A DNA stretch of 64,000 nucleotides from the NCBI GenBank assembly GCA_023920165.1, contig CP089276.1:1550001-1614000 (forward strand). The letters are read 5' to 3'. A program made the position numbers and the translations under genes. Source of the stretch: Curvularia clavata (taxonomy: Eukaryota). The notes under the pieces were generated by a model. That model was not told the origin of the DNA. It did not search any database and saw only the letters and a program-made list of their open reading frames with translations. How positions within the stretch are numbered: position 1 is the first letter of the stretch; each line of letters begins with the position of its first letter. Positions 7,832-11,560 of the stretch are shown here, in pieces.

Positions 7832-8714
7832 ATGGCGCCCAAGATCGCAATTGTCTACTACTCCATGTACGGCCACATCAAGCAACTGGTACGTTGACCT
7901 GGCAAGCTGTCTTGGAGCTCCCCACTAGCTTCAAGGAGAGAGAGAAGAGCTCTACTGACATCAATCCCAGGCCGATGCTGAGCTCAAGGGAATCCAGGAG
8001 GCTGGTGGTGAAGCCAAGCTCTTCCAGTATGTATTCTCCCATGCTCCATATCCCTGACACGATGGTCTTTCCCTGTCTCCTCCACATTCCGAAACACTCC
8101 GATTGCAACCCTTTGCACCCTACGTTCAGATCATGTTCTAACAAGAGACAGGGTTCCCGAGACCCTTCCTCAGGAAGTTCTCGAGAAGATGTACGCCGGA
8201 CCCAAGGCCGCCGATGTCGAGGTTATCGAGGACCCTTCCGTCCTTGAGGCCTACGACGGTGTCCTCTTCGGTATCCCCACACGTTACGGCAACTTCCCTG
8301 CCCAGTTCAAGGCTTTCTGGGACAAGACTGGCAAGCAGTGGTCCCAGGGCGCCTACTGGGGCAAGTACGCTGGTCTCTTCGTCTCCACCGGTACTCAGGG
8401 TGGTGGCCAGGAGAGCACCTGCCTTGCTGCCATGAGCACCCTCGCCCACCACGGCTTCATCTACGTCCCATTGGGCTACAAGACCGTCTTTGGTAAGCTT
8501 CTTCCTATGCTATGACATGCTCCCGGAGACAGTAAACTAACATCGTCCCACAGCCGACCTTGCCAACCTCAACGAGATCCACGGTGGCTCCGCCTGGGGT
8601 GCCGGTACCTTCGCAGGCGCCGACGGCTCCCGCCAGCCCACTGAGCTCGAGCTCCGCGTTGCCACTGCCCAGGGCAAGGCCTTCTACGAGGCCGTTGCCA
8701 AGGCTCACCAGTGA
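7832..8714 (+). CDS. PST2/YCP4: NAD(P)H:quinone oxidoreductase type IV (WrbA/flavodoxin-like; Pst2/Ycp4 family; Alt a 7-like)
   Basis: Exons 7832-7888, 7971-8026, 8152-8492 and 8554-8714. Protein [16 protein letters not shown]...[22 protein letters not shown]...[14 protein letters not shown]...[20 protein letters not shown]...AVAKAHQ*. Confidence 0.97.
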
Positions 8715-8918
8715 CTAGATGATGGTACTTCGGGGGAAAAGAAGGCGGTAGACACTGCCCCTACAACAACCAACGGAACCACAACCGCGGCAGCGACAAA
8801 CAACAATGCTTCTAGCACTCCTGCTGCTGCTGCTACATCGTCATCACAACCTCAGCAAAAAACCGAGAAAGATAAGGAGGGTCCATGTGGCTTGCCGACA
8901 AAGTGCGATATCATGTGA
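8712..8918 (+). other. Putative stop-codon readthrough element (TGA-CTAG) with a 67-codon in-frame extension ending in a CaaX box (CDIM)
   Basis: TGA 8712-8714 is followed by CTAG. The frame stays open to TGA 8916-8918 and encodes LDDGTSGEKKAVDTAPTTTNGTTTAAATNNNASSTPAAAATSSSQPQQKTEKDKEGPCGLPTKCDIM. Confidence 0.78.
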
Positions 8919-9252
8919 TATTCTCACTTTTGTTTGTTGAGCTGCTTGTATACCCTTTCTTAGTATATAAACCCTACGTAAATGATACCAATGTAATGAA
9001 CAATAAGTAAACACACGCTTTCTTTGCTCATGTGCCACACGCTTGTGAAGTTACAAGAACGGCAGAAGAGTCCGTTCACTTAACAGAAAAAGCCCAAGTA
9101 CGCAAGTATAAATATTGATGCATTTATGTGGGGTATATAGCAACAAAATGAGACGTTGCCTAAGTAAGAAAAAAAGAGCCAATAACAAAGATAAAAAGCC
9201 GTCTATATACCCACCCGTGCCAAACTCCATAGAGCCAAACTTATCATTGCAC

Positions 9253-11560
9253 TCAACTACCACCCTCCTTCCCCTTCTCACCATCCTTGCCTCCCTTAGC
9301 ATGCTCACTAATCCACTGATCTACCCACTCCTCAATCCCATCCGCCTTATGCGTCAACCACTCCCACCAACTCTCCTTGCCCTTGCCCTTGCCCTCGCCC
9401 TCGCCCTCGCCCTCGCCCTTGTCTCCCTCATCACTTCCCTTCTTAGGCTCCTCCTCGCCAGCAGGTGCAGAGGGCGGTGTCGGTCGTGCAGGCACCTCAT
9501 CTTCGAGCGTAGACCCCTCGAGACCCGATGCTGAGGCTGCGATGCTGGAGAGGGGGTCGAGAGGGGTTGAGGGCATGGAGGCGAGGTTAGTGGGTAGGAC
9601 AGAGGACGAGGAGGATGAGTACGAGGGAACGGGGTCTTGGGGAATCTCATCAGGTTTTGTGTCTGCGTTGGCGGTATCGCTGTGCAAGCCGATGGGCTTG
9701 AGCGGCAGCCGCAGTGTCCCGTTGTTAGGCGCGGGTTGCAGTTTGATAGAGTCGCAGATGATGTTGTAGAGCTCAATGTTTTCTATCGTTGTTAGCCTAA
9801 CTTCTCCAGCAGAGTTGTGCAGCGTTTTTTTACGTACGAAACGGCGCCATTTGACTACCTGGCTGGTGCGGGAATGCAGGGCCTCTGGCTATGAAGATCG
9901 CGCGCATGAGTGGGTGCTCGTGGTCATAGCCGTGGAGACCACGCGGGTGATACACATTTCCTTCTTTCTTGCCTTTTTCAATGTCGAATTCGTCTTTTGT
10001 GACAATGGCCCAGCCGGTTTTGGGGACGATCCAGAGAGGTGCTATGCGTTCGTTCTTGCTGAAATGGTAGCGCTCGGGCATATCGCCGTCGCGGAGATAC
10101 ACATCTAGATTGGGGTTGTCGGCAGTGCGGTTCTTGAGCTGGTTGTACAGGCGATGCAGTGAGGATGGGTCTTTGGGTCGGAGACCGTAGAGAGGCCAGC
10201 CGTCGGTGTGGGAGAGTTCTGAAGGGTCGATGAGGTCTTCGAGTTGGATCAGGCGGCTAATGTCCGTTGTGGCCATACCATGGTCAGATACAACAACCAC
10301 GTTGACAATACCGGTAAGATTTCGCTCATGGAGGCCTTTGAAAATGTTCCCCATCATAGTGTCAACCCTCGTGATGGTTTCCCGGATCTCTGTGCTGTTG
10401 GGGCCGTATCTGTGGCCGTCGCCATCTACGTCAGGGACGTACGCAGCAATGAGTTGGGGTCGAGGAGTAACCGCACTCGCACCAATGTCTTTGGGACCAG
10501 GCAGATCAAGGAGCCCCAAGATGCGATCTACTTTCCTAGATAGGACTTCTGAACCATTGTACTTGTCAATATAAGCAACCTTCTGATCCAGAATATTGGC
10601 TTCTGAACCTGGCCACATATGTACTGCGGCCCTGACATTCTGCTTCTCTGCCGTCACCCACAGCGGCTCTCCTCCCCACCAGTGCGGCTGCAAGCTCTGC
10701 TTCGGATGCGTGTAGTAAAACTCCTGCTTGAGCTCCGGGTCCCAGAAAGTGTTGGACACAATGCCATGCGCCTCAGGATACAGACCAGTTGCAAGCGTAT
10801 AGTGATTCGGAAAGGTAACACTGGGGAAACTGGGCAGCATGTACTTGGGCGATATACCCTCTTGCACAAACTGGTTAAGCGTGGGCGTAAGATTGCGATA
10901 CAGAAAGTCGGCGCGGAAGCCGTCAAGGGATATCAGGATTGTGGTAGGCGCAAAGAGTGAGGTGCCATTCGACACTAAGACCACGGTGCCCTTGACATCT
11001 TGCGGGGTGGAGAGATTGTATGCGGTCGCTAGGAGGATGACAAAAAGAACGATGACGGATACGTATATGGCTATGCGACGGTACAGACTCTTTCTTTGCG
11101 CCTGTTACGACCGTCAGTTTCCTTCGTGCACACAGGGGCATACCTCACTGACCTTCCTCTGCGATTCAGTCGCAAGCAACCGTTGTTGATTGCTCTCCGA
11201 GTTTCCCGATATGAAACTGGTACTGGAAGCCCCGGTGCCCTCCTCAATGTCATACATGAGCGCGCTTGACTCCTCATCGCCGCCCTTTCGACGCGCTTTC
11301 GACTTCTCCTTGACCCATTTCCCGACCTTGACGCTTGACCCTTTGCGGCCCAAGAAGCCTTTGCCTTCGTGGTCCTGTGTAAGCAGCTTTTCACGCTCGT
11401 CTTCCGAGTCTAGTATATCGTGGTCGTTTTTCGAGAGCTCGCCCGAGGGCCTGCCATCGTAGCTTTCGTCGTCGGAGGTATGCTCGTAGAGCGTGCGTTC
11501 GTCGGTACCCGCGTCGGAGCTTGCGACCCTGTGTAACTCGTCTGGTAACCTTGCAGCCAT
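9253..11560 (-). CDS. NPP1: Ectonucleotide pyrophosphatase/phosphodiesterase (type I phosphodiesterase, type II membrane protein)
   Basis: Introns 11102-11152 and 9783-9837. TM segment IAIYVSVIVLFVILLATAY. Motifs ISLDGFR, PSFPSVTFPNHYTLATGLYP, PDVDGDGHRYGP, VSDHGM, GLHGYD, FQNIELYNIICD. Confidence 0.94.
9375..9421. repeat. Hexanucleotide repeat (CCTTGC)3(CCTCGC)4 inside the NPP1 tail
   Basis: Visible tandem repeat; encodes GEGEGEGEGKGKGK on the minus strand. Confidence 0.9.

Follow-up and report, generated by a model that had tools for sequence, protein, structure and literature searches.

Here, we describe a WrbA/Alt a 7-like quinone reductase gene of Curvularia clavata in which a stop codon in the context UGA-CUAG is very probably a site of programmed readthrough, conserved across Pezizomycotina, that would yield a second, prenylated isoform of the enzyme. 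The gene lies in a 64,000-nucleotide stretch of genomic DNA (NCBI GenBank assembly GCA_023920165.1, contig CP089276.1, forward strand positions 1,550,001 to 1,614,000), hereafter the window, and all coordinates below are counted from its first letter. An earlier reading of these letters (the original prediction) had proposed that readthrough of the stop adds a CaaX membrane anchor; comparison with orthologues and with RNA contigs supports this interpretation, and it is from these two sources that we infer ribosomal readthrough itself. The reading is based on an orthologous stop that is held as TGA, on the bases CU(A)(G) and the synonymous sites held downstream of it, on a frame strictly kept and open wherever there is no intron, on substitutions of coding type, and on one mRNA that carries both the stop and the extension.

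The short-form protein ends in ...AVAKAHQ, followed by TGA at 8712-8714, and the bases directly 3' of this first TGA are CTAG (8715-8718). The extension beyond it (8715-8915) translates as LDDGTSGEKKAVDTAPTTTNGTTTAAATNNNASSTPAAAATSSSQPQQKTEKDKEGPCGLPTKCDIM. The features concerned are:

7832-8714, plus strand: WrbA/Alt a 7-like flavodoxin-like quinone reductase gene, short form, four exons, 204 amino acids
7832-7888, 7971-8026, 8152-8492 and 8554-8714, plus strand: the exons of this gene, from its spliced translation
8712-8714, plus strand: first stop, TGA, proposed to be leaky
8715-8722, plus strand: proposed readthrough context CTAGATGA, positions +4 to +11 counting from the T of TGA
8715-8915, plus strand: in-frame extension of 67 codons, a T/A/S/N-rich linker and a conserved end motif
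8874-8915, plus strand: conserved C-terminal motif KEGPCGLPTKCDIM, with the upstream Cys at 8886-8888
8904-8915, plus strand: predicted CaaX box C-D-I-M, with its Cys four residues from the C-terminus
8916-8918, plus strand: terminal (second) stop, TGA
8919-9013, plus strand: T-rich, short 3' untranslated region of the long form, with the mRNA end near 9000-9013

Both TGA codons, the CTAG and the 67 open codons lie exactly where the original prediction had placed them, and T-rich DNA, which it had described as beginning only after the second stop, was seen 3' of 8916-8918. Exon 3 matches the Pfam family FMN_red (PF03358; 4.3e-10, above the cut-off), which identifies a flavodoxin-like flavin mononucleotide (FMN)-reductase domain, and the homologues are fungal WrbA/Pst2/Alt a 7 flavodoxin-like quinone reductases carrying PF03358, PF00258 and PF02525; the quinone reductase activity and the oligomeric state of the window protein we infer from this family membership. 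No Pfam family matched the tail of the window gene.

Matching sequence was found in 20 public runs, and RNA contigs covering the gene were taken from the runs X1, X9 and X14, of which X9 and X14 are recorded as metatranscriptomes. All three GT..AG introns of the gene are confirmed as joints in contigs of these three runs, and because the introns are absent the contigs derive from RNA. From 8553 onwards they cross the TGA and the entire tail unbroken, free of joints and identical in every letter, so that the first stop and the tail lie on one mature mRNA. The contigs end at 8999, 9001 and 9013, about 80-95 nucleotides past the second stop, although contigs cannot strictly prove an mRNA end. Two outcomes that the original prediction had named as refuting it, a poly(A) site upstream of 8915 and a tail reached by splicing or RNA editing, were thus not seen for this lineage in the three runs, where the contigs extend beyond the second stop and are unspliced and unedited at the first. 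In run X1, a contig that retains intron 1 (window 7860-7999) has a depth of 8.3 against 21.8 for the spliced form, so that minor isoforms of that order are visible in such data, and no minor isoform was found at the first stop in the contigs of the three runs. A contig of another organism in run X14 overlaps 8667-8703 and then reads ...CAG TGA CTG CAA GG..., the same type of junction in the RNA of a second species. Separately, run X9 yields a contig with an insertion of two letters (TC) after 7791, within the TC-rich 5' leader, which is a length polymorphism between strains.

Orthologues were collected by scanning metagenome contigs with the back-translated motif E-G-P-C-G-L-P-x-K-C, which yielded 108 loci; 8 of these are cut off upstream, and the remaining 100 reduce to 84 unique loci that include the upstream stop. 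Of these 84, 68 form class 1 (intron-free), in which the end of the WrbA domain (...KVNFA, ...KVNFQ and ...KVSF among others) is followed by an in-frame stop, which is TGA in 68/68, and then by an open tail. The two bases after this TGA are CT in all 68 loci, extended to CTA in 48, CTG in 15 and CTC in 5, and 40 read CTAG. The tails stay open for 44-100 codons and have 28 different lengths, always in frame 0. Labelled by best BLAST match to 35 named proteins, 17 of the mutually related class 1 loci look like Dothideomycetes, 28 like Eurotiomycetes, 19 like Leotiomycetes and 4 like Sordariomycetes. None of the 84 unique loci has a sense codon in place of the first stop, and a single uninterrupted open reading frame (ORF) of domain and CaaX tail, as in yeast Ycp4, is found neither in the window nor in any of the 68 intron-free loci, where a TGA separates the two. 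The alignment of orthologous 3' flanks that the original prediction had suggested as a check is thereby borne out for the TGA, for its CTA context in the counts just given, and for a frame kept across tails of many lengths.

Four loci were excluded when the classes were counted. L020 and L021 lie on a single palindromic contig, one on each arm, so that the gene end occurs twice in opposite orientation; the frame is broken between the TGA CTAGAT junction and the tail motif, and the contig is most likely the product of misassembly. L035 has TGA CTACAT and a tail with no domain upstream, and L084 is too short.

The constraint around the stop extends to synonymous sites. At position +9, class 1 loci have T in 57 cases, A in 11, and C or G in none, with GAT 37 times against 0 for GAC and CAT 9 times against 0 for CAC; and CTA is the commonest Leu codon directly after the first stop. 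Since these synonymous sites are constrained, the constraint acts on RNA. These tails themselves end in a mixture of stops (TAG 29, TAA 20, TGA 20; n=69 including the window). Together, the mixed terminal stops, the constrained synonymous sites and the preference for CTA speak for selection that acts on the RNA context as well as on the peptide. On the upstream side, the base before TGA is G in 38 of the 68 loci, with CAG 14 times against 1 for CAA, CCG 10 times against 3 for CCA, and GCG in 11 of 24 Ala codons, and this G may be an upstream part of the readthrough context. The heptamer TGACTAG is uninformative by itself, as the window holds 4 copies where shuffles give 6.3, and none of the three other sites (7559, 47596 and 49710) is at the end of a convincing ORF; the TGA-CTAG feature is non-random because it is conserved in orthologues, not because of its frequency in the window.

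Ratios of nonsynonymous to synonymous substitution (dN/dS) were calculated by the Nei-Gojobori method for 96 pairs of class 1 tails (55-97% identity). The median dN/dS is 0.26 for the linker (67 usable pairs, all < 1) and 0.04 for the last 14 codons, figures that are indicative, being biased downward by protein-guided alignments and non-independent pairs. Linker differences by codon position 1/2/3 number 1037/839/1955. This pattern of substitution indicates that the tail is under purifying selection.

The end of the tail is still more uniform. In 90 of 90 unique loci the stop falls exactly 3 codons after the last Cys, a spacing not imposed by the search pattern, which ended at that Cys. The spacing between the two conserved cysteines (C-x5-C), in turn, was partly imposed by that pattern. 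The a2 residue is aliphatic in all 90 loci (I 65, V 23, L 2), and the X residue is L in 49, M in 23, S in 8, Q in 7, and I, A and V in 1 each. An X residue of M, S, Q or A favours farnesylation, and L favours geranylgeranylation. The terminal C-D-I-M of the window extension is accordingly predicted to be a CaaX box, a signal for prenylation, and the C-x5-CaaX end expected by the original prediction recurs throughout.

A second arrangement is found in 12 of the 84 unique loci (class 2: L011, L022, L023, L036, L039, L044, L045, L073, L082, L097, L101 and L103), Sordariomycete-like loci in which the short-form stop lies in a canonical intron whose removal connects the domain to the same tail. These loci are mostly Podospora- or Fusarium-like by best match, and their domain ends in ...FGA. 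Their DNA has a consensus donor, G|GTGCGT(A/G)A, in which intron bases 6-8 form the stop (TAA or TGA), and a GCTAAY branch and AG 55-67 nucleotides after the stop (101 in L101). The tail is out of frame with the domain in 6 of them (L022, L023, L036, L082, L097 and L101) and in frame in the other 6, and the context after the stop is not CTA in 10 of 12; L039 and L045 have the intron and an in-frame TGA CTG context together. All out-of-frame loci of the whole set fall in class 2. Since this class alone has out-of-frame cases and mostly lacks CTA, it is only in the absence of an intron that frame and context are preserved, and the intron class acts as an internal control for readthrough in the others. 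In class 2, retention of the intron would give the short protein and splicing the long one.

The main rival explanation is alternative splicing in the Curvularia lineage itself, in which a minor transcript would remove the stop through a non-canonical or very short intron and the UGA would never be read through. We regard this as improbable, even though class 2 clearly uses an intron to reach the tail, rare isoforms are below the reach of assembled contigs, and the G at -1 creates a GTGACT hexamer in the window and in 38 of the 68 loci. In the contigs of the three runs the junction is only ever unspliced, while minor retention of intron 1 is visible in X1. No in-frame intron that combines an acceptable donor with a branch-like site and an acceptor occurs in the window or in 64 of the 67 other class 1 loci scanned, a scan that covered all of class 1 except L002; the three exceptions (L074, L094 and L096) need a GTGAGG or GTAAGG donor 41 nucleotides upstream, which would delete part of the domain. 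Nor would splicing demand frame 0, openness from the first codon, TGA in 68/68 loci, CT(A)(G) after the stop, or T at +9.

Database annotations also bear on splicing. A search with the last exon and tail returned about 35 annotated long proteins of 236-298 amino acids from five Pezizomycotina classes (Pyrenophora, Alternaria, Penicillium, Aspergillus, Paecilomyces, Sclerotinia, Rhynchosporium, Lachnellula, Hyaloscypha, Fusarium, Podospora, Colletotrichum, Agyrium and Icmadophila), and these models, which bridge the stop with introns, count in favour of splicing. All of them end in (K/D)KEGPCGLPxKCxx[LMQS], the same motif as in the window. However, the joint between domain and tail varies by species (P0003, P0004, P0009, P0005-P0017 and others), for example ...AFYEA|AVETNG... 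in Pyrenophora and ...AQAQ|DDGKAAGD... in Alternaria dauci, and the Pyrenophora-type junction corresponds to a 48-nucleotide GTCGCC...AG segment in the look-alike locus L054 that has no consensus signals. The varying joints are probably annotation artefacts of gene predictors hopping over a stop rather than real introns. Most of the 120 listed relatives of normal length have 200-206 amino acids and end at the first stop. Five metagenome gene calls (P0061, P0078, P0079, P0081 and P0083) have W at the stop position (e.g., ...AKAHAWLDG...); these were not counted as sense codons, because P0061 reads the second stop as W too, which indicates a TGA=Trp gene call and suggests that fungal contigs were called with a TGA=Trp code. 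The models that end at the first stop, the bridging by pseudo-introns and the TGA=Trp calls together expose a systematic annotation error.

Adenosine-to-inosine (A-to-I) editing of the mRNA, which would turn UGA into UGG at certain developmental stages and give the long form without ribosomal readthrough, is highly improbable. The in-frame Trp that results would also account for the conserved frame, and removal of stops by editing exists in Sordariomycetes, for example in Fusarium sexual development (PMC13123824). Against editing, the contigs of the three runs show no letter difference at 8714, though contigs drop rare variants, and what is conserved is the downstream CU(A)(G), that is, the readthrough motif. 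Fungal editing prefers U before the edited A, and here a G precedes it. To our knowledge, editing is so far known only from sexual stages of few lineages, whereas the arrangement of TGA and tail spans loci resembling four classes.

Absence of function, with the tail as a chance open frame or as the decaying leftover of an ancestral Ycp4-like ORF truncated by a nonsense mutation, is scarcely credible. In its favour, an open frame of 67 codons has by itself a chance of a few per cent, and TGACTAG is not enriched in the window. Against it, 68 unique loci share the TGA, its context, the frame and the CaaX geometry over 28 tail lengths, dN/dS is low (0.26 linker, 0.04 motif), the distance from Cys to stop is fixed in 90/90 loci, a remnant would gather frameshifts and stops, and the divergence of the loci rules out a single near-clonal lineage. 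Selenocysteine insertion at the UGA is ruled out, as fungi lack the machinery (PMC4207609), and independent initiation within the tail is likewise rejected, as the window tail has no ATG ahead of its last codon and an internal Met occurs in only 2 of 69 tails, which makes such initiation unlikely in the family at large.

Several points weigh against readthrough and have to be set beside the evidence for it. The census loci were chosen by their tail motif, so the share of tail-less orthologues is not given by the census, and the relatedness of the loci, the labelling of classes by best match, the downward bias of dN/dS and the partly imposed C-x5-C spacing, all mentioned above, reduce what the counts can carry. 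The 12 class 2 loci show that splicing is able to attach the tail in this family. The GTGACT created by G at -1 is a weak donor-like hexamer; it is absent in the other 30 of the 68 loci, and it has C at +5 where fungal donors have G. Because assembled contigs drop rare variants, rare spliced or edited forms can be missed. Finally, no stimulatory RNA structure was found downstream of the stop (window fold 8700-8840, z = -0.96; 37 of 200 shuffles fold as well), and the UGA-CUAG motif is not known to require one.

In the mechanism that we propose for readthrough at this stop, the soluble 204-amino-acid WrbA/Pst2-type NAD(P)H:quinone oxidoreductase would end at UGA 8712-8714 in the leaky context UGA-CUAG, and a fraction of ribosomes would insert an amino acid at the UGA and continue for 67 codons. 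The long isoform of about 272 amino acids would carry a flexible linker ending in ...EGPCGLPTKC-DIM, of which C-D-I-M is predicted to be farnesylated and then trimmed and methylated, with a candidate for a second site of lipidation in the invariant Cys six residues upstream. Such an isoform would then be located on a membrane, and because WrbA-type enzymes are oligomers, tethering of mixed oligomers to the membrane is conceivable. A fuller version of this proposal, which we consider likely, is that an ancient and maintained UGA-CUAG readthrough in most Pezizomycotina would give a small share of the subunits a dually lipidated CaaX anchor, the first conserved lipid anchor to be supplied by recoding; that the rate of readthrough would set the share of the enzyme held at the plasma membrane or eisosomes for ubiquinol regeneration; and that three evolutionary solutions to the same end would exist.

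Downstream of the gene, a neighbouring ORF on the minus strand (9253-9888) has a run of GCCCTC/GCCCTT hexamers near 9380-9420 that encodes GEGEGEGEGKGKGK, and a low-depth RNA contig of run X9 spans 9132-9281.

Readthrough of this kind of stop has precedents in fungi. In U. maydis, UGA needs no more than a following CU to be read through, and this sequence is active in human cells too, while termination at UGA CUA(G) is weak (Stiebler et al., 2014, PMC4207609); cryptic peroxisomal signals of fungi arise from a mosaic of readthrough and alternative splicing (Schueren and Thoms, 2016, PMC4973966). Isoforms with a cryptic peroxisomal targeting signal type 1 (PTS1), known for PGK, GAPDH and TPI, are like the present case in their UGA CUA G context, in a minor, C-terminally extended and targeted isoform, and in the mosaic of readthrough and splicing. 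Their extension supplies a short peroxisomal tripeptide, whereas here a predicted CaaX box stands on a linker of 44-100 residues, the host is a flavodoxin-like quinone reductase, and the predicted destination is a membrane surface. The original paper on these isoforms is reportedly that of Freitag and colleagues from 2012. In mammals, LDHB and MDH1 undergo readthrough at UGA CUA G (PMC4359377, PMC5133446, PMC12233894), with the extended isoform of MDH1 reported at about 4%. These share the UGA CUAG heptamer and a low-percentage extended isoform with the gene described here, but they are animal genes with a PTS1 payload, whereas the nucleotide constraint found here reaches at least +9/+10 (T, G).

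The tail itself also has a counterpart, in the Ycp4 proteins of Saccharomycotina. Ycp4 of C. albicans is extended by roughly 90 amino acids that end in CAAX (Li et al., 2015, PMC4556627), and yeast Ycp4 is listed beside Ras1/2 as a substrate of the Erf2 palmitoyltransferase (PMC5364179); it is described as palmitoylated and recruited to the plasma membrane and eisosomes by a mechanism that the same source calls unknown (bioRxiv 10.1101/2023.04.27.538084). Annotated main ORFs of this type end in ...SSCSKCIIM in Candida, ...NGCCLLM and ...NGCCIVM in Lachancea, and ...GGVCGLKCEVM in Saitoella. The comparison with Ycp4 made in the original prediction therefore holds, as the Candida and Lachancea homologues bear the CaaX tail in the main ORF (PMC4556627 for Candida): the enzyme family is the same, and so is a low-complexity tail ending in a Cys-rich CaaX. 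Unlike here, where one gene has a stop between domain and tail, in yeasts a dedicated paralogue encodes the tail within its main ORF, and the tail-less Pst2 and Rfs1 are separate genes.

The nearest published item is a predicted prenylation motif in one readthrough extension among about 350 candidates in Drosophila (Dunn et al., 2013, PMC3840789). It resembles the present case in having such a motif in the extension, but it concerns an unrelated gene and is a single prediction, for which the available passages of that paper report no conservation or function. Alt a 7 and Cla h 7, minor allergens of 204 amino acids from Alternaria and Cladosporium, are orthologous to the short form described here; the extended isoform is absent from their entries, and the long models skip the stop with ad hoc introns. 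In a search of full-text literature, with most subscription journals and supplements outside its range, no published readthrough or stop-separated CaaX tail was found in this family. The mechanism of readthrough and the Ycp4-type tail are each already known; their combination, its conservation over loci like those of four Pezizomycotina classes, and the three-way evolutionary alternative appear to be new.

If readthrough occurs as proposed, this gene would be a conserved and readily testable addition to the short list of fungal genes with functional readthrough, and the payloads of readthrough would extend from peroxisomal signals to a lipid anchor. The three evolutionary solutions would then be a leaky stop in most classes, a stop-containing intron in some Sordariomycetes, and a division between two paralogues, Ycp4 and Pst2, in yeasts. 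The coexistence of leaky-stop and intron routes to one tail offers a clean natural experiment in the mutual replacement of recoding and splicing. The Alt a 7 allergens would have a longer isoform that has gone unrecognised. Flavodoxin-like quinone reductases counter the stress caused by quinones and lipid peroxidation and, in Candida, promote virulence (PMC4556627), and readthrough at this stop would offer a route by which such enzymes reach the membrane in filamentous fungi.

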